Shown piece after piece: positions 2,733-42,102 of a DNA stretch of 64,000 nt. The stretch lies in NCBI GenBank assembly GCA_016928395.1, contig JAFGKV010000134.1, positions 2,631-66,630 on the forward strand, given 5' to 3'. This stretch comes from Candidatus Fermentibacterota bacterium. GTDB lineage: Bacteria; JAFGKV01. Positions within the stretch are counted from its first letter, which is position 1; every line of letters begins with the position of its first letter. The notes under the pieces were generated by a model that saw only the letters and a list, made by a program, of their open reading frames with translations, did not search any database and was not told the origin of the DNA. A program made the translations under genes and the position numbers.

Positions 2733-4538
2733 TCAGGGGACGGGCAGCTCCCAGTCGAAGTCGATGCAGTGCAGCGGCGGCATGGAGGCGATCTCCAAAA
2801 TCGCGCGCCGGAGTTCGCCCGGATGGCTCTGCATGGACTGCGCGTAGTAGATGGGCGGGTTGTCGTGATCGTACAGAACATTGGGCTCATTGCCTATGGC
2901 AGCCACGTTGACGCGGGTCCAGGGGACGCCACCGAGGATCGCGATGTTCGTGAGATCGATGGCATGTTTGCACGGGTACCACACGGGATTGTAATCGAAT
3001 CCGGGCCACTGTGCATTGGGCGGCTGTGCGTGATCCCACTGGGCTTGGAGCCGCAGGTAGCGGCATCGCAGCCCCGCGATGAAGCTCGCTGCCTCGCGCT
3101 CGGCCCACCAGGCGGCATTCTCGGGCGATGGATCTCGAACGAGGCTCCAATGGCCGAAGAGGTCGTAGGCCTGCAGGTAGCGGTCATTGGAGGGGTCTTC
3201 GTCTAGTGACCAGGGCTCCATACTGGTAACGAAGTTGTCCGAAGGCCCTTCGACGTCGATGAGGTAGGCGACCTGAAGCTCAGGATATCTGCCCAGGCAG
3301 CCGGCGCCCATGGTGATGCCATAACTGCTGGTCACGACACCTACATTGTCGTCACGCACATTGGGCAGGCCGTGGACGAACTCCATGACGGCCTCAAGGT
3401 CATCCTGGTGCGCAACGCCGTTGTGATCCTCCTCGCCGTCACTGGGATGCTGCACCCCTCGCCCCTCGGCATTGAAGTGCACCTCGACAAAGCCCGATGC
3501 GGCCACCTGGAGGTTGCCGTTCTCACCTGCGCCAAGCCCGCCGGGAACATTGACGACCGCGGGGAATAGCTCGCCGGGATAGAGGGCGGGATTCGGCTGG
3601 ATGATCTTGGTCCACAGAGCACTGCCGCTGGGCGCGATGACGAAATACCCCTCAACCACTGTGGTGGCATAGGTGATCGGATACTCCCAGATGACCGCGC
3701 CAGCCGTGTCGACTTCCCGGATGGAAGCGTCCACCGAGTACAGAGTTGTCTGTCCCTCGAGACGGTCGGCGTCGTAGGTCAGTCCGCCGGTGGGATGCTC
3801 CCACACGACTGAACCATCGGGCGCAACCTCCAGAATCCGCTCGTGGTTGGAGTCGACGATGATGGTGTGACCATTCGCGAGACGGTCGGCATCCCGCGGC
3901 CAGTCCAGGCCGGCTGCATAGGTCCAAACGATAGCGCCTCCCGCGGTCACCTCGATGATGCGATTGTTGTTGGAGTCTGCGATGATGGTGTTGCCGCCCG
4001 AGAGACGGTCGGCGTTGTGGGGACCGTTGAGCCGATTGGGTCCGCCTCCCGCGACCCCGGTCACGCCGAATTGCCAGACGATGGTCCCGCCACCGTCGAT
4101 CTCAATGACCCGATGGTTGTCTCGATCCGTGATGAGCAGGTGACCTCCGGCCAGAACATTGGCGTCGTTGGGATAGTGCAGGGTGGATCCGTCGCTCAAC
4201 GAGATATCGTCACTGCTCCACAGCACGCCTCCAGCTCTGTGCACGATGATGACGCGGTCATTCCCCGTATCGGAGATGACGATGGTCGAGTCGGTGACAA
4301 TGTCTGCATTGTGAGGCCAGGAGAGCCCTGTGTCCAGCGACCACAGGATGCTGCCGCTGCGGTCCATCTCTACGACCGCACCGCCGCTCATGTTCAGGGG
4401 GCCTCCGTCGGTAACCAGGAGGCTGTCCCCCCCCACGAGATCAACATCGTGCACGCGGATGGGATAATAGGCATCTGTGAGAGCCGGCGGAGGACCAAGC
4501 AATACCATCGCAAGAAGTACGGTGAGACGAGACTGCAT
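2733..4538 (-). CDS. Secreted two-domain protein: N-terminal beta-propeller and a C-terminal domain that may be alpha/beta-hydrolase-like
   Basis: Signal peptide MQSRLTVLLAMVLLGPPPALTDA with a GAGGAG RBS. Repeats include ISDTGNDRVIIVHRAGGVLWS, ITDRDNHRVIEIDGGGTIVWQF, IADSNNNRIIEVTAGGAIVWTY and IVDSNHERILEVAPDGSVVWEH. The function of the C-terminal half is not recognised with confidence. Confidence 0.75.
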   Translation of the reverse strand: MQSRLTVLLAMVLLGPPPALTDAYYPIRVHDVDLVGGDSLLVTDGGPLNMSGGAVVEMDRSGSILWSLDTGLSWPHNADIVTDSTIVISDTGNDRVIIVHRAGGVLWSSDDISLSDGSTLHYPNDANVLAGGHLLITDRDNHRVIEIDGGGTIVWQFGVTGVAGGGPNRLNGPHNADRLSGGNTIIADSNNNRIIEVTAGGAIVWTYAAGLDWPRDADRLANGHTIIVDSNHERILEVAPDGSVVWEHPTGGLTYDADRLEGQTTLYSVDASIREVDTAGAVIWEYPITYATTVVEGYFVIAPSGSALWTKIIQPNPALYPGELFPAVVNVPGGLGAGENGNLQVAASGFVEVHFNAEGRGVQHPSDGEEDHNGVAHQDDLEAVMEFVHGLPNVRDDNVGVVTSSYGITMGAGCLGRYPELQVAYLIDVEGPSDNFVTSMEPWSLDEDPSNDRYLQAYDLFGHWSLVRDPSPENAAWWAEREAASFIAGLRCRYLRLQAQWDHAQPPNAQWPGFDYNPVWYPCKHAIDLTNIAILGGVPWTRVNVAAIGNEPNVLYDHDNPPIYYAQSMQSHPGELRRAILEIASMPPLHCIDFDWELPVP

Positions 4539-7129: not shown

Positions 7130-7616
7130 CATACTGAGGGTGCCGGCCCATCACGGATCGAAGAAACGCCGGTCGTGAGCCGAGTCTGTGGGGTGGGCTC
7201 CGGCCCGTGAGCATGAAAGTCCAACGGCCGCAGCGCCTTCGGCGCCACGCCTCGCCTCAGTCCATCTGCGGGGTGCGGAGCGGGTGAGCCCCCGGAGCCG
7301 CCGCCCGGCGAACGGACGCCTTTTCCCCGGGCCTGGACAATAGGTTGTCGAATCAGAACGAACGGCATTCATTGCCGCGGTGCCCGCAGTCCTGGCGTCT
7401 CCATTACGCCTTCCCGCGCCGCATCATGTCGATCACCCATGGGATGCAAGGCTCCCATGGCGTGGTCACCCACTGAACCTGCCGCGGAACTGCAGAATGG
7501 TGAACCTGGATCGTCACGTATGCATGAGTTCGTTGAGAACTGATCCCATGCCTCTTTACCTCAGCCGTTCCGGCACGCGACGTATCGTGTGCGGGGCCGG
7601 GCAAAGGAGCATCCCC

Positions 7617-9866
7617 GTGTCATTCCAGATGTGTGTGTGCCTGACCGTACTGTGCCTCGCTGCCGTGCCTCCCTGGGTTGGCGGTGCCGACGCCACGCAG
7701 CCGGGTGCGGCTCCCCTCATCTATCTCAAGTACGCAGCCTTCGATCCGATTGCCGGGGAGCCGGCCGTGCCGCCGATGCTCCAGGCCCGTCCCGAGAATA
7801 CCGTGCGCCTGGTGCATGTGGGCCGCCCGCTCCAGAACGATGAGATCGCCACGCTGGAAGCCGCCGGAGCCCAGGTTTTGAGCTATGTGCCCGAATTCAC
7901 CTATCTAGTGAACCTTCAGGAGAGTGACCGAGCCCGCGTGGCCGGGCTTCCTCTTACCCGATGGATCGGCGAGTTCCATCCGGCATACAAGATCCAAGCC
8001 GGGCTTCTTGGCTCGGATGAGGGCGACCTGGAGCTGAATGTCATGTACTTCCGGGAAGTAACCTCGAACGGGCGCCCGGACCGCCTCATGGAGATCGTGG
8101 CGCGGTGCGGGGGGATCGTCACCGAGGACGACGGCCTCTTCCCTCTGCTCAGGATCCGGTGTGCGCCTCGATGGATCCAGACCCTGGCCTCGCTTCCCGA
8201 GGTCAGATGGATCGACAGGTATGACCCTCCGGTGCGGGCCATGAACTACACACGAGTTGCTGTGGGCGCGGGCACTGCCGCCGCCGGTGGTTTCACCGGG
8301 TCGGGCATCGTGGGTGAAGTCAAGGACGACGGCATCGATCAGACTCACCAGGACTTCGGGAATCTCATCGGCACCTACGGATCGCCTGCAGTAGACTCGC
8401 ATGGCACCTGCACGTTCGGCATCGTGTTCGGTGACGGGACCGGGTCGGCCAATGCGACGGGCATGATGCCCTCCGGGAGCGGCGTGTTCGCCAACTGGAG
8501 CACGAGTCGTTCGGCATCGATCCAGAACCTGAAGAACACCTGGGGCGGCGTGTTCCAGACGAACAGCTGGATTCAGGGAAACCTGGATGGCGACTACAGC
8601 TCCTACTCGAACCAGAATGATGACGCCGTCGTCCTCCACGACGTGCTCATGCTCTACTCCGCGGGCAACAGCAACTATGGGGTCGGGTCACAGACAGTCT
8701 CCCAGGATGCCGTCGGGAAGAATGTCATCGCGGTGGGCGCGGTGTGCCACTTCAACACCGTGGATCTAAGCGATGACCGCTGGCAGAACGGAGGCTCGGG
8801 CAACACGCCGTCGCAGGGTCCGGCGGCAGACAGCAGGATCAAGCCCGATCTCTGCGCATTCTTCGATTATATCTACACCACCGATCGCCCCGGCGCGGCC
8901 GGATACGCAAACGGAGACTACTTCACGTATTTCGGCGGCACCAGCGCGGCGGCACCCATCGTGGCCGGGTCGGCAGGCCTGGTCTACGAGATGTACGGGG
9001 CAGACCACTTTGGCACCGGGGCGCTTCGCACCACTCCCCATGCGGCAACGGTGAAGGCGATCCTCATCGCCAATGCCCATCAGTACAGCCTGACCGCGGC
9101 GAACCGCTACAGACAGGGGTGGGGCCTACCGGATGTCGGTCGTATCCATGAGGTGGGACCGAATCAACTCATCATTGACGGGGGGAATCCTCTGTGTACC
9201 GGTCAGACATGGTCCACGAACGTGACCCGCTTCAGCGGTGAGGAGCCTTTGAAGCTCTCGTTGGTCTGGAGCGACAAGCCGGGCGAGGCCTCATCATCCC
9301 GGGCGCTGATCAATGACCTTGACCTGAAGGTCACAGACCCCAATGGCGATGTCTACCGGGGCAACTGCGATCTCGTCTCCTCACTCTGGTCTAGCCCGGG
9401 AGGCTCGTTCGACCGCTACAACAACGTGGAAAACGTGTTCATTCAATCACCGATCGCCGGCGCCTACCTGGTCGAAGTAGTCGCGTTCAACGTTGCACAG
9501 GACAATGATCCCGCCGCAGGCGTGAATCAGGACTTCTCCCTCGTGGCCACCATGACGGGCGGGTCAGCGCTGGCTCCCATGGGCCTGTCCATACAGCAGA
9601 TCGATGCGACCACCGCCCGGCTGTCGTGGTCTGCCGTCACCGGAGCAACGCACTACTGCCTCTACCGGAGCCAGTCGCCTTACTTCAGCGCCTCGGCATT
9701 GGCCTGGCAAACCGTGGCAGCTCCTACGCTGCAGTACGATTTCACAGCAGGCGTAGGCGATCCGAGCACGAGCTACTACTTCCGCGGAGTCGCCCGAAAC
9801 GCCACCGAGAGTTCACCGGAGTCGAATATCGTCGGCGAGATGGACTATGACACCGACATCCCCTGA
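7617..9866 (+). CDS. Secreted subtilisin-like (S8) serine protease with P-domain-like region and Fn3-like C-terminal module ending SNIVGEMDYDTDIP
   Basis: Catalytic motifs appear in D-H-S order: VKDDGIDQTHQDF, DSHGTCTFGIV, SAGNSNYG (oxyanion Asn) and GGTSAAAPIVAGSAGLVYE. A P-domain-like stretch reads LSLVWSDKPGE...INDLDLKVTDPNGDVY. The start is uncertain: the ORF opens at 7380, and I prefer GTG 7617 (AAGGAG 7 nt upstream). Alternatives are 7524, 7548 and 7629. Confidence 0.85.
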   Translation: MSFQMCVCLTVLCLAAVPPWVGGADATQPGAAPLIYLKYAAFDPIAGEPAVPPMLQARPENTVRLVHVGRPLQNDEIATLEAAGAQVLSYVPEFTYLVNLQESDRARVAGLPLTRWIGEFHPAYKIQAGLLGSDEGDLELNVMYFREVTSNGRPDRLMEIVARCGGIVTEDDGLFPLLRIRCAPRWIQTLASLPEVRWIDRYDPPVRAMNYTRVAVGAGTAAAGGFTGSGIVGEVKDDGIDQTHQDFGNLIGTYGSPAVDSHGTCTFGIVFGDGTGSANATGMMPSGSGVFANWSTSRSASIQNLKNTWGGVFQTNSWIQGNLDGDYSSYSNQNDDAVVLHDVLMLYSAGNSNYGVGSQTVSQDAVGKNVIAVGAVCHFNTVDLSDDRWQNGGSGNTPSQGPAADSRIKPDLCAFFDYIYTTDRPGAAGYANGDYFTYFGGTSAAAPIVAGSAGLVYEMYGADHFGTGALRTTPHAATVKAILIANAHQYSLTAANRYRQGWGLPDVGRIHEVGPNQLIIDGGNPLCTGQTWSTNVTRFSGEEPLKLSLVWSDKPGEASSSRALINDLDLKVTDPNGDVYRGNCDLVSSLWSSPGGSFDRYNNVENVFIQSPIAGAYLVEVVAFNVAQDNDPAAGVNQDFSLVATMTGGSALAPMGLSIQQIDATTARLSWSAVTGATHYCLYRSQSPYFSASALAWQTVAAPTLQYDFTAGVGDPSTSYYFRGVARNATESSPESNIVGEMDYDTDIP

Positions 9867-12600: not shown

Positions 12601-12998
12601 GGTGAGAGGAGGGCGAAACCGGGACGGTGAGCTGCAAGCGGGGTAAGCCCTCGGGCGGCGCGCCGGTTCCATTCTGCGGAGTGCTGCGAGCCCGCGCACC
12701 TGAGCCGCGCCTCGATTGGGACACGAAGCGGTCGCTCTGGGCCGGTTGGGGCCCTCGTCACTATGGTCGACAGGCCTCTCCACGTCTTTGGACAGGGCCA
12801 GAGGAACTAGAATCCACTGTTCTCGGCGATCATGATCCGGTCGCGCCGCATCGAATAGGCTGTCCCCATAGTGCTCGACAGCAACCCCGGGGCGCTCTAC
12901 ATTCCATCATTCGACGGCAAGAAGGAGCTTCGACGCCTGCGCGCAGATGCGTCGACAGACGCGGTGCTCCTCTCGAAGTCTCTCGGAAGGAGTCATCG

Positions 12999-13553
12999 AT
13001 GGTCTGTGCTCGCCTGCCGACCTATCTCCTCGGTGTCCTCTGCGCTGTGCTGCCTGCCGGCGCGCAGATAGTCTCCTGGGATGTCATCGCCGCAGGAGGG
13101 ACGCACACGTCTGCTTCTGAGTGTCACGGCATGGCGTCCACGGTGGGGCAAGCCTTGGCCGGGATGCAAGTGGGGCCAACGCACTGGGTATGGGCAGGAT
13201 TCTGGAACCCCGCGGTTCGGGGGCCTCTGGGGACCGGAAACGCGGCGAGTCTTCTCCCCACATCCTTCCGGTTGGGCACAAACTGCCCGAACCCGTTCAC
13301 GGACAGGACAACGGTCTTCTACGCGATACCTATGCAATGCCGGATCACGCTTCAGATCTATGACCTCCAGGGCCGCCTGATCCGACACGTGGTGGACGCC
13401 CAGACCAGCGCCGGATTTCACGCATGTCCCTGGGACGGCAGAGATTTCCTGGGTCGTACGCTGGGGAGTGGCGCCTACGTGGCACGACTGAATGCGCGGT
13501 CGCTCGATCATGAGCTGTGTGCGTTGAATCACACGATGATTCTCGTCCGATGA
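12999..13553 (+). CDS. Small secreted protein with T9SS type-A / FlgD-Ig-like C-terminal domain
   Basis: ATG 12999 is preceded by GGAAGGAG, followed by signal peptide MVCARLPTYLLGVLCAVLPAGAQ. The CTD reads NCPNPFTDRTTVFYAIP..ITLQIYDLQGRLIRHV...AGFHACPWDGRD.LGRTLGSGAYVARL. The ORF-track extension back to 12627 looks non-coding. Confidence 0.75.
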   Translation: MVCARLPTYLLGVLCAVLPAGAQIVSWDVIAAGGTHTSASECHGMASTVGQALAGMQVGPTHWVWAGFWNPAVRGPLGTGNAASLLPTSFRLGTNCPNPFTDRTTVFYAIPMQCRITLQIYDLQGRLIRHVVDAQTSAGFHACPWDGRDFLGRTLGSGAYVARLNARSLDHELCALNHTMILVR

Positions 13554-15446: not shown

Positions 15447-15865
15447 GGATGCGGGGAGCATCGCGGCACACGCAGAAGACTCAGGGCACCGCTGACCTGC
15501 GAGCGGTTGCCAGTCGTGGGCCCTGGGGGATCCGGCGTTGGAAGAGGGGGCCCGCCATGGCAGAGGGGGGCCACAGCGCTCACACCCCCGGCATGCGGCG
15601 CGGCGGGGATTGATGGCTTCACACCTGGGCTCGTAGACACAAAGCCAAGAACGAATGCCTTCCGAGAGCCCATCCCACAGCCGGTCCCTCCGCCGTGAAC
15701 CTTCCGCTCCCTTGTCGCGCTAGAGGGGGTGACTGCTTCAAGAGCAGACGCACAGCGGGCTCCGCGCGAAGAGCTTTCCGTGAAGGACGGGCCGTGAGGA
15801 ACTTACCCCCGGTGCGGAGTGTGCTCACAGATGACATGCAGGCACGCTCGAAGGAGGCGCACACA

Positions 15866-18160
15866 ATGACCAGGTTCTCTCGTTTCACCGTTGCGGCTAT
15901 GGTAGTGCTGGTGGCTTCGATTGCCGGGGCCGATGGCATGATCATAATCCCCCATCCACCCATGCCGCCGTATCCTCCTCGCCCACCCCACCCGTGGCCC
16001 ATGCCGCCGCCGCATTATGAGTTCGCACCCCTGGAGGTGAAGTACCATCATGTGACGGCCCGCATCGATGACCAGATCGCCGTGACGGAGATTGACCAGG
16101 TCTTCTACAACCCCAACCACCAGACCCTGGAGGGGGAGTATCTCTTCCCGGTTCCCAAGGGTGCCCGCATCGACAAGTTTTCCATGGATATCAATGGTAA
16201 GGAGGCCGAGGCCGAGCTGCTGGATGCGGACAAGGCGCGCAGGATCTACGAGGATATCGTACGCCGCATGAAGGACCCGGCGCTCTTGGAGTATGCCGGG
16301 CAGGCCCTGTTCAAGGTGCGCGTCTACCCCATCGAGCCCCACAGCGAAAAGAGGATCAGACTCTCGTATTCGGAGCTCTTGCGACGCGATGCAGGCATGG
16401 TTTCCTACGTCTATCCGCTGAACACAGAGAAGTTCTCGGCAAAGCCGTTGAAGAGCGTGTCGGTCAAGGTTGAGCTGTCATGCGCCAAGGGCATCAAGTC
16501 GGTGTTCTGCCCGTCTCACACGGTGGAAATAACCCACCGCGGCCCCTCCGAAGCCACGGTCGGGTTTGAGGCCAAAGACCTGCGACCTGATACCGACTTC
16601 CAGCTCTTCTTCGCCCCTGAGGCGCCTTCTGATGTGGGGATCGATGTCTTGACCTACCGGGAGAAGGCCGATGCCGACGGCGGCTTCTTCCTTCTCTTGG
16701 CCTCTCCGGCCGTGGGTCTGGAAGGAGCTCGGGTCGTGGAGAAGGATGTGGTCTTCGTGCTGGACACCTCGGGCTCCATGGCCGAACGGGGCAAGATCGA
16801 TCAGGCGAAGCGGGCGTTGAGCTTCTGCCTGAAAAACCTGAACCGGGGGGACCGGTTCGAAGTGGTCAGGTTCTCCACCGAAGCCGAAGCGCTCTTCGGG
16901 CGCGTGGTGGCTGCCGGTTCCGAGAACCTCGCCAAGGCCGAATCCTTCGTGCAGGGCCTCAAGCCCATCGGAGGGACGGCCATCCGGGATGCGCTTGTCG
17001 TGGCCCTTGGCCCGGCCACGGAGACCCGAAACAAGGGCCGCCCCTACATGATCGTGTTTCTGACAGACGGTAGGCCGACCATCGGCCCCACGGCCGCTGA
17101 CGAGATCATGGCCGCCGCCATGAAGGAGATGGGCGATCGAACCATTCGCATCTTCTGTTTCGGCATCGGCACCGACGTGAACACCCACCTGCTGGATCTG
17201 CTCACGGAGTCGACCCGCGCAGCCAGCCAGTATGTGCTGCCCGACGAGGATATCGAGATCAAGGTTTCAAACTTCTACGCCAAGATCAGTGACCCGGTGC
17301 TCACTGACCTGCAGCTAGAGATGACTGGGGGCATCCGGCCCTCCAAGATGACGCCGTCGCGCCTGCCCGACCTGTTCAAAGGCGAGCAACTGGTGGTACT
17401 CGGCAGGTACGCGGGCGACGGAGACGCAGCCGTAACCCTCAAGGGCATGGTTGATGGGAAGCCCCGCACCTTTACCCATGAACTGAAGTTTCCCGCCTCC
17501 GCCACGGACCATGTGTTCATCCCGCGCCTCTGGGCCACGCGCCGGGTAGGCTTCCTGCTGGATCAGATCCGCCTCAATGGTGAGAACGCGGAGCTCCGTG
17601 ACGAGGTCGTCGACCTGGCCCGGAAGTATGGCATCGTCACCCCCTATACCGCCTATCTCATCGTGGAAGATGAGGACCGCCGCGGGCTGGCCCAGACGCA
17701 ACGCAGCCTCCCGCAGTTTGACGCGGAACTCCACGAAACCACCGGCCGCATGTATAACGAACTCCCGACCAGCGTGGCCGGCGATGGTGCAGTTGGAGGC
17801 GCCCAGAGTCTCGATGCATTGAAGCGCGCCAAGGGAATGTCGGCTCCGAGCATCGCCAATGCACCCATGATGCGGGGCGGTCGCGCGACGATGGCGTCAC
17901 CCTTGGCCGACAGAATGGAGCAGGCCGTCTCCGGGCAGCAGAACCGATATGTGGCGGGACGAACGTTCTACCAGAACGGCGCGCAGTGGATCGATGCCAG
18001 TGTCCAGACCACGGCAGATGCCCGCCGCATCCAGGTCAGGATTGGCTCCGACGAGTACTTCACCCTGCTGAAGAAGCATCCGAACGCCGCCCAGTGGCTC
18101 TCGGTGGGCCGCAATGTCCAGGTGCTGCTGGATGACACGGTATACGAAGTGATTGAGTGA
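15866..18160 (+). CDS. Secreted VIT-domain + von Willebrand factor A (vWA) protein
   Basis: ATG 15866 follows GAAGGAGG, with signal MTRFSRFTVAAMVVLVASIAGADG. VIT region: YHHVTARIDDQIAVTEIDQVFYNPNHQTLEGEYLFPVPKGARIDKFSMDING. vWA MIDAS motif: VVFVLDTSGSM. The ORF-track start at 15695 is probably too long. Confidence 0.85.
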   Translation: MTRFSRFTVAAMVVLVASIAGADGMIIIPHPPMPPYPPRPPHPWPMPPPHYEFAPLEVKYHHVTARIDDQIAVTEIDQVFYNPNHQTLEGEYLFPVPKGARIDKFSMDINGKEAEAELLDADKARRIYEDIVRRMKDPALLEYAGQALFKVRVYPIEPHSEKRIRLSYSELLRRDAGMVSYVYPLNTEKFSAKPLKSVSVKVELSCAKGIKSVFCPSHTVEITHRGPSEATVGFEAKDLRPDTDFQLFFAPEAPSDVGIDVLTYREKADADGGFFLLLASPAVGLEGARVVEKDVVFVLDTSGSMAERGKIDQAKRALSFCLKNLNRGDRFEVVRFSTEAEALFGRVVAAGSENLAKAESFVQGLKPIGGTAIRDALVVALGPATETRNKGRPYMIVFLTDGRPTIGPTAADEIMAAAMKEMGDRTIRIFCFGIGTDVNTHLLDLLTESTRAASQYVLPDEDIEIKVSNFYAKISDPVLTDLQLEMTGGIRPSKMTPSRLPDLFKGEQLVVLGRYAGDGDAAVTLKGMVDGKPRTFTHELKFPASATDHVFIPRLWATRRVGFLLDQIRLNGENAELRDEVVDLARKYGIVTPYTAYLIVEDEDRRGLAQTQRSLPQFDAELHETTGRMYNELPTSVAGDGAVGGAQSLDALKRAKGMSAPSIANAPMMRGGRATMASPLADRMEQAVSGQQNRYVAGRTFYQNGAQWIDASVQTTADARRIQVRIGSDEYFTLLKKHPNAAQWLSVGRNVQVLLDDTVYEVIE

Positions 18161-18420
18161 TGGATGGATGGAATGATGGACAAGCGGGCGGGGCCTGTGA
18201 ACTGGAGTGCCCGGCTCGCCGATTACGATAGCGATAGCGACCCGCAGGCCCGGCCGACCTACGAGGCAACGGCGCCGTGGGCGGCTCCGTAGGGGAGGGA
18301 CCTGTGCCCTCCCGCTCAGTGCGCCGTACTCTCAACCCTCGAGAAATCTGAGTGCCTCCACACTCAGAGGCCGGACTGAACCCTGAACCCTGCAACCTCA
18401 ATGGAGAAAGAGAGAGACCA

Positions 18421-19563
18421 ATGATTCGAATCGCACCCCTCCTGCTTGCCGCCATCTCTACCGTGACGGTGTTGGCGACGACCGCCGAGGCTGAGCAACC
18501 GCCTCGCATCGAGGTCTGTTTCGTTTTGGATACGACCGGCTCCATGGGCGGGCTCATCGAGGGCGCCAAGGCCAAGATATGGTCTATCGCGAATCAGATG
18601 ATCGAGGCAAAGCCGACGCCCAGGCTCAGCATTGCGCTGGTCGGCTACCGGGATCGCGGCGACGACTACATCACCACGGTCTTCGACCTTACCGAGGACA
18701 TCGATGCCGTGTATGCCAATCTCCATGGCTTTCAGGCCGACGGAGGTGGGGACACTCCGGAATCCGTCAACCAGGCACTACATGAGGCAGTCACCGATAT
18801 CTCCTGGAGCCAGGACCGCGACATCCTCAAGATCATCTTCCTTGTGGGCGACTGCCCTCCCCACATGGACTACTCCGACGATGTGAAATATCCCGAAACC
18901 TGCCAGGCGGCGGTGCGCAAGGACCTCATCATCAACACGGTTCAGTGCGGGTCCCATGAGCCGACCGTACCGATCTGGCAGGAGATCGCCCGCCTGGCCG
19001 AAGGCTCCTATGTCGCCATCGGGCAAACCGGCGACATGCAGGTCATCACCACGCCCTTTGACAGCCGTCTATCCGAGCTGAACGCCTCGCTGGGAACCAC
19101 GGTCGTCGCCTACGGCCGCGATGAAGTCAAACGTTCCGTTCGGGCCAAGCAGATGGCGGCCGAGGCGGCCCCCGCACCGACCATGGCCGACCGTCTCGTG
19201 TACAATGCCAAGACCGGCATGGTGGTGCAGGGCGGCGGCGATCTGGTCAAAGACCTGGATGACGGCACGGTGAAGTTGGAGGAGTTGGCCGAAGACGAGC
19301 TTCCTGATGAATTGCGGGAACTGGGCGCCGCCGAACGGGAACAGGTAATCAAGGAGAAGGCGGCCCAGCGCCAGCAGATTCAGACGGAGATCAACGACCT
19401 GCTGAAAAAACGGCAAGGTTTCATCGATGCCGAAACGGCCCGGCTCGCCCGGGAAGGCAAAGGACTCGCCTTCGATGTCAAAGTCAATGAAATGCTCCGG
19501 GAACAGGCCCTCCGCAAGGGCCTGACCTACGAGAGCGAGAGCTCCTCGGGCGGAACGGAATAG
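18421..19563 (+). CDS. Secreted vWA-domain protein with C-terminal coiled-coil-like region
   Basis: ATG 18421 with signal MIRIAPLLLAAISTVTVLATTAEA. MIDAS motif VCFVLDTTGSMGG, then ...ADGGGDTPESVNQAL...IIFLVGDCPPH. The C-terminus is charged and heptad-like (ELRELGAAEREQVIKEKAAQRQQIQTEINDLLKK). Confidence 0.8.
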   Translation: MIRIAPLLLAAISTVTVLATTAEAEQPPRIEVCFVLDTTGSMGGLIEGAKAKIWSIANQMIEAKPTPRLSIALVGYRDRGDDYITTVFDLTEDIDAVYANLHGFQADGGGDTPESVNQALHEAVTDISWSQDRDILKIIFLVGDCPPHMDYSDDVKYPETCQAAVRKDLIINTVQCGSHEPTVPIWQEIARLAEGSYVAIGQTGDMQVITTPFDSRLSELNASLGTTVVAYGRDEVKRSVRAKQMAAEAAPAPTMADRLVYNAKTGMVVQGGGDLVKDLDDGTVKLEELAEDELPDELRELGAAEREQVIKEKAAQRQQIQTEINDLLKKRQGFIDAETARLAREGKGLAFDVKVNEMLREQALRKGLTYESESSSGGTE

Positions 19564-19765: not shown

Positions 19766-19830
19766 GGGGAACGCCCCCCATCCTGAGACCGCTGGGCGCA
19801 CCCTCCGTGCATTCCCATGGAGTGTGGGGC

Positions 19831-22233
19831 ATGCAGATCTCCTCCCTCGCGTCGTGTGTGCTTCTCATCTCGTTCATCGCATCAGTCGTTCCGCAGGCGT
19901 CCGCCCAGGAGTGGAGCGTTGAGCATGTCGACTTCCCCCGCTGGTTCGAGCATCTGACCGACCGCTACGTCAGGGTCGATGCATCGGGAGCCCGGCATCT
20001 CGTGTATGGAGCCTTCGGTTTGTTCTACCTGAGGGTCGACGGCCTGGCCCTGCAAGAAGAGCTAGTCGACCCATCGCCCCACGTCGGGAGTCATGCGTCG
20101 CTGGCTCTGAACTCGGAGGCCCGGCCCCACGCGGCCTACGCCGATGGACTGAACGGCTTCCTTCGCTACGCCTGGAAGAGCCCCTCGGGGTGGGTCGTCG
20201 AGGTGGCAGACGGCCAGGGATCCGGTGGGCTCTACACCTCCGTGGCCCTGGATCCGTCGGACGCACCATGCATCGCCTACTATGACAGCGCAGGACAGAA
20301 TCTACGCTACGCCCACAGAACGGGATCGGGGTGGGTGGTCCAGGTCGTGGACAGCCTCGGATCGGTCGGCGAGTACGCATCAATGGCCCTTGATGCTTCC
20401 GGAGCCGGGCATATCGCCTATTTCGAGCGCACGGAAGGCGTGTCGGGCATGCTGAAGCATGCGCGATGGGATGGCTCCCAGTGGGTGATCGACAGCATCG
20501 TGCCGGCCAAGGCCGCCGGCCTGTCCATCGACCTCGACAGCGCCTCCCGCGAGCACATCACCTACGTCAGCGCCTCCAACAACCGGGCTCATGCCTTCTG
20601 GAACGGCTCTTCATGGGAGACCACCGAAGTGCACGGCATCGGCGGCTTCTCCTCGCAGGAGGCCTCGCTGGTGGTGGATGCCGCCGACGGAATTCACCTC
20701 GCATTCAGATACCATGACGCCGATCCGTATGACGCGGTGTACTCGGTGATCTATGCATACAATGGCGGATCGGGGTGGTCGTTCAACACGGTCATCGTGT
20801 CCTACACCTACGAGACCTGGGGGTATGGCGCCGTATCGCTGGCCGTAGGCGACGACGGGACGCGCCACATCGGCATCATCGACATCGGCCCTCCCGACGC
20901 GCTCAAACTGGCCATCTCGCAGCCTGGCGGCACGTGGGGAGTGCCCAACATCTCGCGGGAGAATGAGTGCGACTGGTGCAGCCTGGAACTCACCGGCGAC
21001 GCAAGCCCCAGGGTGACCTATCGCAAGACCGAGGGCCTTGACTCCAACTTCCCCCTGTGCTACGCGCAGAAGACGGAATCAGGATGGAGCATCGAGACGT
21101 TGGACCTGACGGGGTCCGGCGTATCGAAGCCTTCGCTGGATCTGGATAGCCTCGACCAGCCTCACATCGGATACTACTACTCCACGACCCCTCACCTTCG
21201 TCACGCCCTGAGAGACGACACCGGATGGCATCGGCAGATCGTGGATGCGGGAGCCCAGATCGGCCAGCACGCCTCCTTGGCGCTGGATTCCCTTGGCTTT
21301 GCCCATATAAGCTACTATGCCGGCGGAGCCGCTGATCTGAAGTATGCGTATGAGGATGACTCCGGATGGCACCTGCAGACGGTTGACTCGCAGGGCTCCG
21401 TGGGAACCCACACCTCGCTGGCTTTGGACAATGGCGACTTCCCCCACATCTGCTACTACGACGCGACAAACACGGCGCTCAAGTATTCCTTCCTGGATGG
21501 CGCCGGCTGGCATGTCGAGACGGTGGATGCGCCGGGGTCAGTCGGGACCTACGGCTCACTCGCCTTGGACGGATCGGGCTGTGCCCACATCAGCTACCGC
21601 GACGCCACCAATCTTGACCTCAAGTACGCCTACCGAGCCACAGCCGGGTGGGTCGTTATTGCCGTGGACATGGTCGGCAATGTGGGTGAGTTCACTTCAC
21701 TCGCGGTGGATCGATTCGGGAAGCCGCATATCAGCTACCACGATCATAGCAATGGCAGGCTGAAGTATGCGTATGAAGACTGGGCGGGCTGGCACGTGCT
21801 GACCCTGCCCGGCATGGGGCATGGAGGCCACTACACCTCCCTCGTGGTCGATCAGTTCCGACACGCCCATATCTGCTACGTTGACAACAATGCGGTGGCC
21901 TACGCGACGGCGGCCCTCCCACCTGCCACCAACCTCGTCGGCAGCCTGAGCAATGGGCAGTTCATCCTCATGTGGGCACCGGTGCCAGAGGCCGATGCAT
22001 ACTGGATCTATGGGTCCGCCGATGGGCCGTGGTTCACCCCGGGGTTTGGGCCGGGGTATGCGCATCGCCTGGCCGTGGTGCCGCAAGGCACGACCACATG
22101 GCAGAGTGAGAACTCGGCCGGCAATCCCGCCCAGAACTGGGCCTATCTTATTCTTGCGGTCGACCCGGCGGAACTGGAGCTCTGCCGTTCGAACCGCGTG
22201 GGCGAGTTCGACTTCGAGGCGTCGGTTCCATAG
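19831..22233 (+). CDS. Secreted 14-repeat (2 x 7) beta-propeller-like protein with Fn3-like C-terminal module ending SNRVGEFDFEASVP
   Basis: Signal MQISSLASCVLLISFIASVVPQASAQ. About 14 copies of the same 45-aa repeat as in 716..2122, for example WHVETVDAPGSVGTYGSLALDGSGCAHISYRDATNLDLKYAYRATAG. The ORF track opens at 19807. Confidence 0.85.
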   Translation: MQISSLASCVLLISFIASVVPQASAQEWSVEHVDFPRWFEHLTDRYVRVDASGARHLVYGAFGLFYLRVDGLALQEELVDPSPHVGSHASLALNSEARPHAAYADGLNGFLRYAWKSPSGWVVEVADGQGSGGLYTSVALDPSDAPCIAYYDSAGQNLRYAHRTGSGWVVQVVDSLGSVGEYASMALDASGAGHIAYFERTEGVSGMLKHARWDGSQWVIDSIVPAKAAGLSIDLDSASREHITYVSASNNRAHAFWNGSSWETTEVHGIGGFSSQEASLVVDAADGIHLAFRYHDADPYDAVYSVIYAYNGGSGWSFNTVIVSYTYETWGYGAVSLAVGDDGTRHIGIIDIGPPDALKLAISQPGGTWGVPNISRENECDWCSLELTGDASPRVTYRKTEGLDSNFPLCYAQKTESGWSIETLDLTGSGVSKPSLDLDSLDQPHIGYYYSTTPHLRHALRDDTGWHRQIVDAGAQIGQHASLALDSLGFAHISYYAGGAADLKYAYEDDSGWHLQTVDSQGSVGTHTSLALDNGDFPHICYYDATNTALKYSFLDGAGWHVETVDAPGSVGTYGSLALDGSGCAHISYRDATNLDLKYAYRATAGWVVIAVDMVGNVGEFTSLAVDRFGKPHISYHDHSNGRLKYAYEDWAGWHVLTLPGMGHGGHYTSLVVDQFRHAHICYVDNNAVAYATAALPPATNLVGSLSNGQFILMWAPVPEADAYWIYGSADGPWFTPGFGPGYAHRLAVVPQGTTTWQSENSAGNPAQNWAYLILAVDPAELELCRSNRVGEFDFEASVP

Positions 22234-22375: not shown

Positions 22376-24511
22376 CTAGCGCACGATCAGGAACTTGCCG
22401 GTGTGTTCGGCTGAGGCCGCCTTGATGCGATAGAGATAGATCCCACCCGCGACCTCTCGGCCATCTGCGTTCTTCAGGTCCCACGCTTCCCACGACAGGC
22501 CGCTGGTGTGGCGTAGTTCTCGGATGAAGTCGCCCGCCAAGGTGTAGATCTGAATCGTGCAGACAGGGGGGAGCACGCGGAACTCCACCAGCCTGCCCGG
22601 CTGCCCGATCTCCAGCCGCGATGATCCCCGGTAGGGATTGGGCACGACGACAATCGCGCTCAGATCCCCGTCTGATATGGCACCCTCGGCGGGGATTGCC
22701 AGCTGCGCAGCGTCCCGGCTCGACTCCAGCACGCCGATGAGACCACGACGCTGCGTCCAGGCTGCATTGTGGATGCCATCGCCATTGTTGCCGTCATCGA
22801 AGGCCGTCACTACGTAGCGCAACCGGGCGCCATTCATCAGCCCCCGGTCGAGATACTCGTAGGCATACCCCGAATCTGCGCCGGCCGGCGACGGCCAGCC
22901 CATGTTCAGACCGATGGTATCGGGAAGATCATAGGTTGCCACCAGAGTCCACTCCTCACCGTCAACGGTGCGCCAAATGTTGTAGCCCTGGAAATCGGCA
23001 TACCCGACGGCGCGCTCAAACGAGCCCTCCGCCTCATCATCCCACACGACGAGCACAGATCGGTGATGGGGCTCAGCGAGGAAACGTGGGGCGTGCGGCG
23101 GTGTCGGGCCGGCGAAGTCGGGATCGAGCATCTGTTCGGCGGTGATGCCCCCATACCAAAGATGCTGGTCGTCGAAGCCGTTCACGATGGCGATGGCCGC
23201 CGTCATGACCTCCCCGGGCCCCAGATCTCCCAGTGGCCCGACGGCCAAGACCATCCTCCAGTCACCGATGTTCCGCCGCTCATCCGCATCACGGACACCG
23301 GAAACCATGAGGGAGTAGAGGGCATAGTCATCGATGGGATCTCCTCCGGTCAGGCGGTTGAGGTTCTTGTAGGTGAATGGTGGGTCGGGAATGGGTGTTT
23401 CCACAAACCGAACTCCGAAGGCCCGGGATGAAAGCAGCCCCTCGTCACCATCATTGTCTGCCCCGACGGCCATGCGAATGTCGTCGAAAAAGTAGGTGAT
23501 GTCGTCTTCCGATCGATCCCACGCTTCTTGGGACAGGTGGCCGACATCGAAATCGAAGAACGTGGCCAGGCACACATCCTCGAGGAGATACCCGCCGATA
23601 TTGGCAATGGAATACCGTATGAGAAGGATATCATCGGCATAGGCTGCAGACCACTGAAAGGAGTGCTGCACCACCTTGATGCCCAGTGGCCAGTGATCAT
23701 CGCCGGGATTCTCGACGCAGGCGGCGCAGGTGTCGACCATCACCGTCACCAGCTCCTGGGTTGTCCATGCCGCATCATCCTCGTCTATGAGCCCATCACC
23801 GTCGTCATCGCAGCTCCCCGGCACACGATCCCCATCAAGATCCGGATCGTCGGCATCGATGAGCCCGTCGCCGTCATTGTCGATGAAGTCAGCCGAAATG
23901 TCCCCCGCCGGGTCCTCGTCGATGCGGCCATCGCCATCATCATCGATCCCCATGATGCCAACCCCCAGGTAGCGCCCCTCCAACTTCGCCCGCTGCCTCG
24001 CCTCCGAGTCGGCAACGGGGCGCCGCTCGAGCCAGCTCACGCTGTGGACCGCGGAATCAGCGCGATCAGCGGGGGTCGCAAGCTCCAGGGCGCCAAACTC
24101 ATTGGTCCCGTTGTTGCTGTCGGTACAGGTCGAGACGTGGGGCTGGCCGTCTACGGTGGCGCCGACCCACAGCCCTCCGGAGAAGAGGAACACCGTCCCG
24201 CTTTCGCCGGGATACTCCAGCTCGGGAACCCAGAGGGTATCTCCGCCGGGATTTCCGAACTCCCCATCATTGCTCATGCCGAGCCACTGCAGGCCGCCGT
24301 GGTGCACCGCGTATCGTCGCTCCGCCACGATGGGAGCCGAGGTCGGCTGACACCAGGCCAATCCAGCGAGGTCAAGGCAGAAAAATGACCCATGCACCAG
24401 AGCAACCGTGCTGGCCAGAATCGCGATGAATCGAGGGTGATCACGCATGGTACGCCTCATCGTTGCCATGGTTCGGCAGCCGGCGCGGTATCGAGAATGC
24501 CCCAGAGGCAC
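22376..24511 (-). CDS. Large secreted protein with Asp-rich Ca-binding-like repeats and T9SS type-A / FlgD-Ig-like C-terminal domain
   Basis: CTD (nt 22376-22657): VVVPNPYRGSS...CTIQIYTLAGDFIRELRH...WEAWDLKNADGREVAGGIYLYRIKA...GKFLIVR. Acidic repeats: DDDGDGRIDEDPAGD..DNDGDGLIDADDPDLDGD...DDDGDGLIDEDD. The start is uncertain, with in-frame ATGs at 24511, 24469, 24460 and 24448. Confidence 0.8.
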   Translation of the reverse strand: MPLGHSRYRAGCRTMATMRRTMRDHPRFIAILASTVALVHGSFFCLDLAGLAWCQPTSAPIVAERRYAVHHGGLQWLGMSNDGEFGNPGGDTLWVPELEYPGESGTVFLFSGGLWVGATVDGQPHVSTCTDSNNGTNEFGALELATPADRADSAVHSVSWLERRPVADSEARQRAKLEGRYLGVGIMGIDDDGDGRIDEDPAGDISADFIDNDGDGLIDADDPDLDGDRVPGSCDDDGDGLIDEDDAAWTTQELVTVMVDTCAACVENPGDDHWPLGIKVVQHSFQWSAAYADDILLIRYSIANIGGYLLEDVCLATFFDFDVGHLSQEAWDRSEDDITYFFDDIRMAVGADNDGDEGLLSSRAFGVRFVETPIPDPPFTYKNLNRLTGGDPIDDYALYSLMVSGVRDADERRNIGDWRMVLAVGPLGDLGPGEVMTAAIAIVNGFDDQHLWYGGITAEQMLDPDFAGPTPPHAPRFLAEPHHRSVLVVWDDEAEGSFERAVGYADFQGYNIWRTVDGEEWTLVATYDLPDTIGLNMGWPSPAGADSGYAYEYLDRGLMNGARLRYVVTAFDDGNNGDGIHNAAWTQRRGLIGVLESSRDAAQLAIPAEGAISDGDLSAIVVVPNPYRGSSRLEIGQPGRLVEFRVLPPVCTIQIYTLAGDFIRELRHTSGLSWEAWDLKNADGREVAGGIYLYRIKAASAEHTGKFLIVR

Positions 24512-33727: not shown

Positions 33728-34344
33728 TGCGTGAGCCCGGCCTGTTTCCCCGTCAGAGAGCCCTACTCCGGGAAGTACGGCGTCTCACGAAGGAGCAAGG
33801 CTATCCTCCCACGATCCGTGAGCTGGCCCAGGCCCTCGGTGTTCGCTCGCCCAACGGCGTCCGACAACAGCTCCTCTCCCTGGAACGAAAGGGGTGCCTC
33901 AGACGCGAGCCGGGTAAGCCCCGGGGAATCGTCTTGGCAGACTCCGCGGAGGAGGAATCCATTCCCATCCTTGGGCTCGTCGCCGCCGGATCTCCAATCG
34001 ATGCGGCCGAGATGCACCGCGGACGACTGGCGCTTGGCCCTTCACTGGGCGTGGCGACCGACAGATGCTTTGCGGTGGAGGTCGAAGGCGAGAGCATGAT
34101 TGGAGAGCACATCGTGCAAGGTGATTTCGTCGTGCTCGATCCGGGAGTGGAACCGCGCAATGGCCATATCGTAGGAGTCACGGTCGACGGGGCCGTGACC
34201 CTGAAGACGTATCATTCCGACTACGACGGCGTGGAACTCCGCCCCGCCAACCCCCGCATGCGTGCCATTCAGATCCGCTCGGGAACGGTGCATGACGCCC
34301 GGGTCATGGGAGTGGCCGTGGCCGTGGTCCGTCGCTTGGGATGA
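33727..34344 (+). CDS. lexA: LexA repressor (S24 peptidase)
   Basis: wHTH region TIRELAQALGVRSPNGVRQQLLSLERKG, cleavage site VAAG, catalytic Ser in VEGESM and Lys in VTLKTY, then C-terminal MGVAVAVVRRL. Confidence 0.9.
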   Translation: MREPGLFPRQRALLREVRRLTKEQGYPPTIRELAQALGVRSPNGVRQQLLSLERKGCLRREPGKPRGIVLADSAEEESIPILGLVAAGSPIDAAEMHRGRLALGPSLGVATDRCFAVEVEGESMIGEHIVQGDFVVLDPGVEPRNGHIVGVTVDGAVTLKTYHSDYDGVELRPANPRMRAIQIRSGTVHDARVMGVAVAVVRRLG

Positions 34345-36260
34345 GCATAGTGCGCCGTCTCTGGCTGCTGCTTTTGCTGCCCTGCGCCGCAATGGCCGAC
34401 TGGGGCGGTGTGGCCGGTGCCTACCTTCGTTTCGGGGCCTCGGCCCGCACCCTGGGTATGGGAGGATTGGATCTAGTGCTGGGACGCGGTGACGCCGCAG
34501 CCTACGGGAATCCAGCCCTGATCGGCCTGTTGGACGCCCGTGAGCTGTCATTCACCCATGTGGCCCTGTATGAGGGGTCATCCTATTCCGTAGCCACGGC
34601 GGCCCTTCCCGGCCAACGATGGGGCGGCCTGGGCCTGGCGGTGGTCAGTCTGCGATGCGACGGCTTCGAGAAACGAGGCGAATTCGACAATCGATACTCT
34701 ATCAAAGGGGAGGAGTTCGGCAGCGCCCAGACCGCACTCCTTGCCGGAGGGGGCAGGGATCTCAGTTCGTGGGCCACGGGAACCTCCCTGGGTGGTCGGA
34801 TCATCATTGCCGGGCACTCGATGCTGGATCAGCGGGCATTCGGCTTCGGCGCGGATTTCGGCATCGAACACCGGATGGTACTCCCCTATGTCCATCGACG
34901 TCTCGCTCCTCTGACCGTGGCCGTGACGGTTTCGAACGTACTCCAGCCTCGCGTTCGAATGGAGAGAGATGTGGAGCGTTTTGCCCGCCGCGTCGACGTG
35001 GCAGCAAGCTATGCCGTGCATCCTTGGGGCGCACTGGGATTGCAGGCCTGCGTGGCCGGCGATGCGAGCCGGCGGTTCATAGCCGGCATCGAGGCTATGC
35101 CGCGTTCCGACCTGGCGCTTCGGCTTGGTGGCAATGCCTCCGAGCTGACTGCAGGAGTGGGCCTTGCCTGGAAGGGGCTTGGCATAGACTACGGCGTGGC
35201 CTGGCATGACGAGTTCTCGCTCAGCCACAGGCTGAGCCTCGTCGTGGCCCGTCCTCGGCGGCCCGCGACGGAACCCTCCTCCCTGCCGCTCTGGGATGCC
35301 TCCCGGTGGGTGGTGCAACATTACCGTGACCCGAAGGCAGCGGATGCGGCCCATCGGCTGGCACAGGCGTTCGGCGGGAGAAGGGCGTCCCGACTCTACC
35401 GGTACGTTGTCGGTCAGCACCCCGCCACGATCTGGGCCGCCCATGGATGGCGATGGTTCGGCGATCGGTCCTACGAGGACCGCAACTGGAAGAAAGCCGA
35501 AACCAACTTGGTGCGGCTTCTGGGCCATCCCCACAGGGATGATGTGGCGGTGCCCGCCACCTGGTTCAGGCTTGGGGATGCGTCCGAGCATCTGGGTCAT
35601 TGGCGGACGGCGGTGGAGGGCTACGAGCTGGTGATGCGAGCATCGGGCGAGCCCGAAGACAAGGCGGAATCGTTCTTCCGAGCGGGGGCGATCCATTTCC
35701 TGCATTTGACCGACTATGCGGCGACCGTCCGCGTGTATGAAGAGGCCGTTACCCGGTATCCGACCCGTGATCTGTCTGATGCCTTCTTCCGGCTCGGCAG
35801 GTCGTATGCGGAGCTTGCACGGTGGCAAAGCTGCATCGACAGGATGGATGTGTTCCTGGCCAGGTATCAGACCGATTCCAGGGTTCCGGCCGCCCTCTTT
35901 TGGAGCGGGCGTGCCTACTACGAGCTCGGGTTGCCTGAGGAGGCGCTGCTCCGGCTGGAACGAGTGGTCGAGGGCTATCCTCAGGATGAGATAGCAGACG
36001 ACGCAGTCTTGTACAAGGGGCACTGCCGTCGGCTCACTGGAGAACTGGCGCTGGCCCGGATCGAGTATGCGCGGGTGGTGAAGGATTTCCCGATGGGAGA
36101 CACCGCGCCTCTGGCCCAGCTTTCCTTGGGCATTGTGCTGCAGGACGAGGGCTCGCATGACATGGCGATTCGCGAATTCCAGCGATTCATTGTGAACTAT
36201 CCCACTCATCCCGGCCGGAAAGAAGCAGAGGCTCGCCTCGGCACGTTGCGCCGTGAATGA
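34341..36260 (+). CDS. Fusion protein: N-terminal region with PorV/UPF0164-like motif (putative OM barrel) and C-terminal YbgF/BamD-like TPR repeats
   Basis: Signal MSIVRRLWLLLLLPCAAMA. The motif GAYLRFGASARTLGMGGLDLVLGRGDAAAYGNPALIG resembles the N-terminal signature of PorV/PorQ/UPF0164 barrels. The C-terminal half carries TPR-like helices (DAFFRLGRSYAELARWQSCI, ALFWSGRAYYELGLPEEAL). ATGA overlap with lexA. Confidence 0.65.
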   Translation: MSIVRRLWLLLLLPCAAMADWGGVAGAYLRFGASARTLGMGGLDLVLGRGDAAAYGNPALIGLLDARELSFTHVALYEGSSYSVATAALPGQRWGGLGLAVVSLRCDGFEKRGEFDNRYSIKGEEFGSAQTALLAGGGRDLSSWATGTSLGGRIIIAGHSMLDQRAFGFGADFGIEHRMVLPYVHRRLAPLTVAVTVSNVLQPRVRMERDVERFARRVDVAASYAVHPWGALGLQACVAGDASRRFIAGIEAMPRSDLALRLGGNASELTAGVGLAWKGLGIDYGVAWHDEFSLSHRLSLVVARPRRPATEPSSLPLWDASRWVVQHYRDPKAADAAHRLAQAFGGRRASRLYRYVVGQHPATIWAAHGWRWFGDRSYEDRNWKKAETNLVRLLGHPHRDDVAVPATWFRLGDASEHLGHWRTAVEGYELVMRASGEPEDKAESFFRAGAIHFLHLTDYAATVRVYEEAVTRYPTRDLSDAFFRLGRSYAELARWQSCIDRMDVFLARYQTDSRVPAALFWSGRAYYELGLPEEALLRLERVVEGYPQDEIADDAVLYKGHCRRLTGELALARIEYARVVKDFPMGDTAPLAQLSLGIVLQDEGSHDMAIREFQRFIVNYPTHPGRKEAEARLGTLRRE

Positions 36261-42100: not shown

Positions 42101-42102
42101 CC

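Follow-up and report, generated by a model that had tools for sequence, protein, structure and literature searches.

A divergent Fn3 module at the C-terminus of unrelated secreted proteins in Candidatus Fermentibacterota and other phyla, a candidate surface-retention or addressing domain

Do secreted proteins of unrelated function that end in the same domain carry an address? The question is raised by a stretch of 64,000 nucleotides from a Candidatus Fermentibacterota bacterium (contig JAFGKV010000134.1 of assembly GCA_016928395.1, positions 2,631 to 66,630; hereafter the window, meaning the whole stretch), in which an earlier note, made from the sequence alone, had pointed to a module of about 100 amino acids (aa) at the end of three different secreted proteins and had considered it a candidate sorting or anchoring tag. 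Our computational follow-up shows that the three modules are homologous and belong to a divergent subfamily of fibronectin type III (Fn3) domains for which neither Pfam nor NCBIfam has a model. The subfamily occurs in several phyla with a strong bias towards the C-terminus, on diverse passengers, and never together with a C-terminal domain (CTD) of the type IX secretion system (T9SS) on the homologous propellers that we compared. It is neither a membrane-spanning sortase or exosortase signal nor a T9SS CTD. From this architecture we tentatively favour, at slightly short of an even chance, a portable domain that retains or addresses its passenger at the cell surface through non-covalent contacts.

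The first of the three carriers is a secreted BNR_4-like beta-propeller protein of about 14 repeats (19831-22233, + strand). It has 800 aa when read from the ATG, within an open reading frame (ORF) that opens at a GTG at 19807 (808 aa) and gives a weak BNR_4 match in Pfam, and an identical 800-aa product is also called on a Logan contig from SRR13394437. The second is a Peptidase_S8 subtilase according to Pfam (7380-9866, +), an 828-aa ORF whose true start probably lies downstream of the GTG at 7380; apart from Peptidase_S8, this ORF gave only a sub-threshold fn3 match and none to PPC (PF04151) or a P-domain. The third is a secreted propeller protein of about 7 repeats (716-2179, -; 487 aa) and a paralogue of the 14-repeat protein. 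Read by eye, all three have hydrophobic N-termini that look like signal peptides: the 14-repeat propeller starts with MQISSLASCVLLISFIASVVPQASA, which resembles a Sec signal peptide, the S8 protease has the hydrophobic signal-like segment MCVCLTVLCLAAVPPWVGGADA, and the signal-like N-terminus of the 7-repeat propeller contains RTVSLIAAFAVAVCPNLAPS. The window organism is an uncultured diderm that encodes a TonB-dependent receptor and a lipid A acyltransferase, and its closest named relatives as judged by the module are Candidatus Eisenbacteria metagenome-assembled genomes (MAGs). Its myo-inositol-1-phosphate synthase did not narrow this placement, since the matches, all at 68-74% identity, were spread over many phyla.

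Translation and alignment agree that the three ORFs share a C-terminal module of about 100 aa that ends SN(R/I)VGE(F/M)D(F/Y)xxx(I/V)P before the stop codon. In the 14-repeat propeller (module at 21919-22233, +) the motif reads SNRVGEFDF with the tail EASVP, in the S8 protease (9570-9866, +) SNIVGEMDY with DTDIP, and in the 7-repeat propeller (716-1024, -) SNRVGEFDF with QAEIP; the C-termini translated at these coordinates are SNRVGEFDFEASVP, SNIVGEMDYDTDIP and SNRVGEFDFQAEIP, each followed by a stop. BLASTP aligned the two propeller modules with 46% identity over 100 aa (E 2e-33), and a propeller module with that of the S8 protease, the most divergent of the three, with 28% identity over 90 aa (E 3e-5). 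When every six-frame ORF of the window was searched with a hidden Markov model (HMM) built from the three modules, just these three matched (E 1e-41 to 8e-54) and no fourth copy came up, the next-best ORF having an E-value of 0.35. We also verified that the terminal motif is identical at 28 of 30 nucleotides between the two propellers. Recent gene conversion between the propeller tails can be ruled out, with the whole modules identical at just 178 of 309 nucleotides (58%), and the near-identity of the motif follows from its conserved residues and the GC-rich codon usage of a genome with 62% GC.

The earlier note had described the module as Fn3-like with an extra terminal strand, and only the first part of this description holds. 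AlphaFold2 models built from small alignments reached a pLDDT of 90.8 for the module of the 14-repeat propeller and 85.2 for that of the S8 protease, and both show the Fn3 strand order, a seven-strand beta sandwich (A, B, C, C', E, F, G). When both models were compared with the PDB by Foldseek, nearly all of the top 50 matches were Fn3 domains (TMq 0.55-0.77), among them the N-terminal Fn3 domain of PelI/Pel3, Fn3 domains of neogenin and DCC, the Fn3-like domain 3mpc of C. thermocellum and the EPO receptor. These alignments span 91-98 of the approximately 100 residues of the module with the canonical seven strands, and therefore there is no extra strand; the SNRVGEFDF motif is the G strand, with an irregular geometry in the model. 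Among 56 aligned modules, the Fn3 core residues are present in 54 (W19, strand B), 51 (Y28, strand C) and 44 (Y76, the tyrosine corner of strand F).

Family databases (a 2025 copy of Pfam and NCBIfam of 2026) barely recognize this fold in the module. The S8 module matched Pfam fn3 (PF00041) with 18.5 bits (E 0.0024), under the gathering cut-off of 25 bits, while neither of the propeller modules nor any of 4 Chloroflexota modules matched that model at all, and NCBIfam gave no match for the window modules or their Chloroflexota versions. Profile searches of PDB sequences returned marginal matches to Fn3 linkers of glycoside hydrolases (3mpc, 1k85, 5g56; E about 1e-3). The Fn3 fold is thus already known, and automated pipelines label some members accordingly, for instance the JGI annotation 'fibronectin type 3 domain-containing protein'. 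We found no description of the motif or of such a domain in the searchable literature and no member of the subfamily in the PDB, and what appears to be undescribed is the signature of the subfamily, its single-copy, near-terminal position, its spread across phyla and its exchange with T9SS CTDs, dockerins and CTERM signals.

A canonical Fn3 fold, nearest solved sequences that are glycoside hydrolase linkers, the JGI label on one member and a profile that cross-matches thousands of generic Fn3 repeats all speak for a simple explanation, namely that the module is an ordinary spacer or stabilizing domain that stands last by chance and has no role in addressing, anchoring or secretion. The module does resemble the Fn3 domains of secreted bacterial hydrolases (PelI/Pel3, ChiA1, 3mpc; PF00041) in its seven strands, the Trp of strand B, the Tyr of strand C and the tyrosine corner of strand F. 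However, generic Fn3 repeats are tandem and internal, and the module is single-copy, nearly always last and marked by its own signature of PYFxP, G(D/N)PxxN and SNRVGEFD(F/Y). Evidence on this difference comes from a profile search that covered 1.84 billion cluster representatives exhaustively. The search profile also reached into the last propeller blade and picked up general Fn3 similarity, which partly diluted the result, and the classes of match were split afterwards with a module-specific HMM. Among the top 150 of the 17,642 proteins found at E<=1e-3, 86 were giant multi-Fn3 proteins and 58 were proteins of <=900 aa, nearly all of them propellers like those of the window. The 622 generic repeats in the 86 giant proteins matched the Fn3 core alone, and none of them (0/622) reached the G-strand signature, which the modules of the 58 shorter proteins do include. 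The signature and the PYFxP and GDPxxN loops are conserved from Chloroflexota to phyla of the Fibrobacterota, Chlorobiota and Bacteroidota (FCB) group, on 32 unrelated passengers, which also argues against a mere spacer.

This spread means that the module is not limited to the three window paralogues, and we found it in Chloroflexota, Eisenbacteria, Zixibacteria, Fermentibacteria and Ignavibacteriales. A scan of a genome collection for the back-translated sequence NRVGEFDF gave at least 120 matches. When the motif was removed both from an HMM built on the window modules only and from its targets, 46 ORFs still matched over the approximately 90 residues immediately upstream of the motif (independent E-values to 3e-12). 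Nearly all of the 46 belong to Chloroflexota (Anaerolineae/Anaerolineales, Caldilineales, Ardenticatenaceae, Promineifilaceae and 'Chloroflexia' MAGs), where carriers typically end SNRVGEFDFxLxPGx(1-3) before the stop; an Eisenbacteria propeller is also among them. Seeding another scan with the alignment of the window modules added Zixibacteria carriers that end SNRVGEFD(K/R)x6-8K, a further Eisenbacteria protein and a Fermentibacteria protein, each of which has an S8-type module followed by about 15 aa, and an Ignavibacteriales protein. Among the matches listed, single MAGs held several carriers, with at least 5 loci in JALXCB01, at least 4 ORFs in CAZELR01 and at least 3 in JANWYQ01. Three other kinds of match were set aside. 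NRVGEFDF in a cupredoxin-like family (FNRVGEFDFACLIPGHYQAGMVG) of Burkholderiales and relatives, seen in five loci and others, had no upstream match to the module and represents convergence; NSVGEFDF in N6-adenine methylases (NSVGEFDFVMANPPF) of Microcoleus, seen in three loci and others, is unrelated to the module; and motif matches in random frames were dropped as their upstream region was unlike the module.

The module had been called position-locked at the C-terminus, and for the wider family this stands as a strong bias rather than as a rule. In the Chloroflexota-dominated set, 37 of the 46 ORFs have a tail of 4-10 aa after the motif, and in propeller-type carriers of <=900 aa the module ends <=13 residues from the C-terminus in 55 of 58 cases, and in the remaining 3 it is followed by 34-50 residues. 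(A word-indexed search of proteins with this profile gave just 22 short fragments, missed the long proteins of the window itself and was not usable for position.) No carrier has modules in tandem, paired matches in one locus being separate adjacent genes, and overall, in about 80-95% of carriers, the module is present once and forms the last domain. It is internal in 9 of the 46 Chloroflexota ORFs and in one Ignavibacteriales protein, where an extension follows, and thus a free C-terminus after the module is not obligatory; internal copies were among the outcomes that the earlier note had listed as speaking against its proposal, which they do in part. The extension consists of two repeats of about 90 aa (N(W/Y)xxIALPLD followed by WNPxxQxFxxWLPP, G.NF and G.PY elements) and often ends VWP; it was seen in ten Chloroflexota loci, in the Ignavibacteriales protein and, in divergent form, in a Thermoplasmata protein. 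Of the Chloroflexota loci, L088 and L109 both show the long tail, and L088 is missing from the 46 HMM-confirmed ORFs, which include L109. The 185-aa extension matches no Pfam or NCBIfam family, and a passenger family of Peptidase_C25 and DUF11 is found both with and without it.

The passengers proved to be many and unrelated, in line with the earlier note. When the module was removed and the remainder clustered, 51 carriers fell into 32 passenger clusters, and signal peptides or lipoboxes were visible in the complete N-termini that we read. Their Pfam content includes LTD with EEP nuclease, metallophosphatase with PQQ propeller, GH8 with CBM4_9, LamG with cadherin-like, cohesin-like, C25 peptidase, S8 peptidase and BNR-like propellers. 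Because many of these are hydrolases (GH8 with CBM4_9, S8, C25, nuclease, phosphatase) and Fn3-like domains accompany carbohydrate-binding modules (CBMs) in cellulolytic enzymes, the module could instead be a CBM-like domain that binds an environmental polymer, so that enzymes would be directed not to the cell but to what they degrade. However, some carriers already own a CBM, and the passengers act on protein, nucleic acid, polysaccharide or phosphoesters or are non-enzymatic propellers, so that a single common substrate is unlikely. We therefore give little credence to a substrate-targeting role.

A different comparison is offered by the genes next to the carriers, for which the earlier note had reported T9SS-type CTDs. 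This proved correct. The gene at 12627-13553 (+), ending TMILVR, carries at 13251-13553 a T9SS type A CTD (TIGR04183 with 23.2 bits at a cut-off of 23, FlgD_ig and a match to the PorU CTD), and the gene at 22376-24511 (-), ending KFLIVR, has at 22376-22657 a type A-like CTD (TIGR04183 with 18.3 bits, matches to the PorZ and PorU CTDs). Since two such genes adjoin the carriers, the organism appears to run a T9SS in parallel to the Fn3-tagged proteins. The module shares with the T9SS type A CTD (TIGR04183/PF18962, FlgD_ig-like) a beta sandwich of about 80-100 aa at the extreme C-terminus of diverse Sec-exported passengers, many carriers per genome, and the same position on homologous passengers, both propellers and proteins of an ASST/NHL-like type that is described below. 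In contrast to that CTD, it shows Fn3 topology rather than the Ig-like CTD fold, is abundant in Chloroflexota, is sometimes internal and coexists with genuine T9SS CTDs in the window, and there is no sequence or profile similarity between the two. As the earlier note had held, the module is distinct from these CTDs: a comparison by hhalign with 48 T9SS CTDs, the two of the window included, gave a probability of 0.2%, no window module matched TIGR04183, TIGR04131, PF18962 or PF13585 in Pfam and NCBIfam at E<=1, and T9SS CTD structures were absent from the top 50 Foldseek matches of either module model.

The exchange between the two domains was seen when the 7-repeat propeller was used as query after removal of its module. 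Among its best 120 homologues, 33 carry T9SS-type CTDs (PF18962 or PF13860) and at least 9 the module, with no protein having both; PKD/PGF-pre-PGF is found on archaeal ones. Such mutual exclusivity on homologous propellers, the C-terminal sandwich of about 100 aa on Sec-dependent cargo and the T9SS-type CTDs next to the carriers in a diderm would all fit a cleavable secretion signal, analogous to the T9SS CTD, that is recognized by an outer-membrane translocon and removed after export. Against it stand the lack of any relation to T9SS CTDs just described, the internal position in about 20% of Chloroflexota carriers and the finding that no translocon candidate is linked to the carriers at 54 loci. 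Moreover, most of the carriers found are in Chloroflexota, which argues against dependence on a T9SS; to our knowledge, no T9SS has been described in that phylum, and the system is not known outside the FCB group. A cleavable signal is in our judgement improbable. The alternation of the module with true sorting modules on homologous passengers also bears on the ordinary spacer introduced above, and with this, the single-copy terminal position and the signature taken together, we consider the spacer explanation rather unlikely.

Another secreted protein of the window extends this comparison. The ASST/NHL-like protein encoded at 2733-4538 (-) lacks the Fn3 body and ends with the terminal pattern alone, a 12-aa tail, HCIDFDWELPVP, before the stop (2733-2771, -). 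Across 403 proteins, no other that lacks the module was seen to end in this way. In the 120 homologues listed for it, the end of the core ('MPPL') is directly followed by T9SS CTDs in 16 cases, by dockerins in 6 and by IPTL-CTERM-like transmembrane (TM) anchors in about 4 (counted by eye), and short Fn3-like domains also occur there; the tail of the window protein thus stands where its homologues carry known address modules, and a tail of its type was found in none of the 120. In five of these homologues the Fn3-like end matches the module HMM as far as strand F and then stops (for instance with FFVVTSWNSQ); since independent contigs show the same ending, the absence of the G strand appears to be real.

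The tail suggests that the functional element might be a linear peptide, (aromatic)-D-(aromatic)-xxx-(I/V/L)-P with a free carboxyl end, that is read by a PDZ-type protease or receptor and merely presented by the Fn3 body. The 2733-4538 protein ends IDFDWELPVP at the position of its homologues' sorting modules, 4 of the 281 window ORFs of >=100 aa end in [FWYM]D[FWY]xxx[IVL]P (a fourth such ending has a chance of about 2e-3 by rough estimate), and in the Eisenbacteria-type family Pro is the very last residue of 49 of 85 carriers. This tail-only protein is a single case, however, and with its tail kept in none of the listed homologues it could either have a terminal peptide that is itself read by something or be the remnant of a deletion. 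Furthermore, tails differ by phylum (xLxPGx in Chloroflexota, (K/R)x6-8K in Zixibacteria) and in some carriers the motif is followed by a further 15-50 residues or by an entire extension. A linear peptide as the element that is read appears quite improbable to us.

The module can also be set apart from the classical C-terminal signals. LPXTG, PEP-CTERM, IPTL-CTERM and PGF-CTERM likewise mark unrelated secreted proteins with a signature fixed in position at the C-terminus, and IPTL-like and PGF-type signals occur on homologous passengers. Unlike them, the module is a folded domain of about 100 aa and not a signal of about 30 aa, has no hydrophobic helix or basic tail and reaches the stop 4-10 residues past the motif; NCBIfam models of sorting signals gave no match for the window modules. 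For the three window proteins, the earlier statement that there is no TM helix or basic tail was borne out, since they stop 5 residues past FDF/MDY with acidic or polar residues. Similar in the role that we propose are dockerins (PF00404), SLH and CWB2 domains, which are portable, C-terminal and attach diverse secreted enzymes non-covalently to a surface partner; dockerins hold the equivalent position in the ASST/NHL homologues. In contrast to this proposed similarity of role, fold and sequence are unrelated (Pfam found no dockerin in the window modules), and no cohesin-like or polymer partner was found.

We therefore return to a portable domain for non-covalent surface retention or addressing, which we favour because the module combines a signature of its own, C-terminal bias, promiscuity and wide spread with a position that it shares with known address modules. 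Under this model the carrier would first be exported by Sec, and its folded Fn3 module would then make non-covalent contact with a receptor protein or with some component of the cell envelope or the surface matrix, so that the passenger would be kept at the cell surface. Beyond the Fn3 core, the conserved elements are PYFxP in the C-C' loop, G(D/N)PxxN in the E-F loop and GEFDF at the end of strand G. By established Fn3 topology these would come together on the side facing away from the passenger, the C-terminal pole, which would be the likely contact surface.

Several observations weigh against such a role. In bacterial enzymes an Fn3 domain is often no more than a spacer, and the 17,642 profile matches include thousands of generic Fn3 repeats. 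The genome scans were motif-seeded and cover the listed matches only, so that NRVGEFDF may look more invariant than it is and the list of taxa is biased. An internal module followed by 150-194 aa of extension is seen in about 20% of Chloroflexota carriers as well as in the Ignavibacteriales protein L128, and the tail after FD(F) depends on the lineage (xxx(I/V)P, xLxPGx or (K/R)x6-8K). Finally, a co-occurring processing or receptor gene, which the earlier note had suggested looking for, did not emerge: in 54 carrier loci no gene recurred beside the carriers, and the only conserved neighbours were antisense shadow ORFs and the carriers themselves.

Other genes of the window were noted along the way. 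Between module carriers lie a VIT and VWA protein (15695-18160, +), which has sub-threshold similarity to TIGR03788, the 'marine proteobacterial sortase target' family (E 1e-86), and no C-terminal LPXTG or TM tail, and after it a second secreted VWA protein (18352-19563, +). Further downstream, three large proteins with TPR/YfiO-like repeats are encoded in a row (34341-36260, 38549-42100 and 41644-44625, all +; 639, 1183 and about 990 aa), followed by an NHL and PEGA protein and a lipid A acyltransferase; together these genes could form an envelope-biogenesis neighbourhood.

Taken further, the module may be the tag of an undescribed addressing system that reaches from Chloroflexota to candidate phyla of the FCB group and perhaps to archaea, with a dedicated receptor or processing component that would recognize the conserved C-terminal pole or the terminal peptide and by which dozens of exoenzymes would be fixed to the surface of each cell; we regard this as a doubtful extrapolation. 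The tail-only protein and the ASST C-termini that have an Fn3-like domain without a G strand are possibly related elements. If the module is merely structural, the result is a clean new Fn3 subfamily with little new biology. If it does serve in addressing or retention, the module would define the repertoire of surface and secreted enzymes in Anaerolineae-type Chloroflexota, Eisenbacteria and Zixibacteria, which are abundant and mostly uncultured degraders in sediments, soils and bioreactors with essentially unknown sorting routes. A curated HMM would improve the annotation of proteins now called 'hypothetical' or generic 'Fn3' and would provide a handle for finding the partner of the module by phylogenetic profiling.

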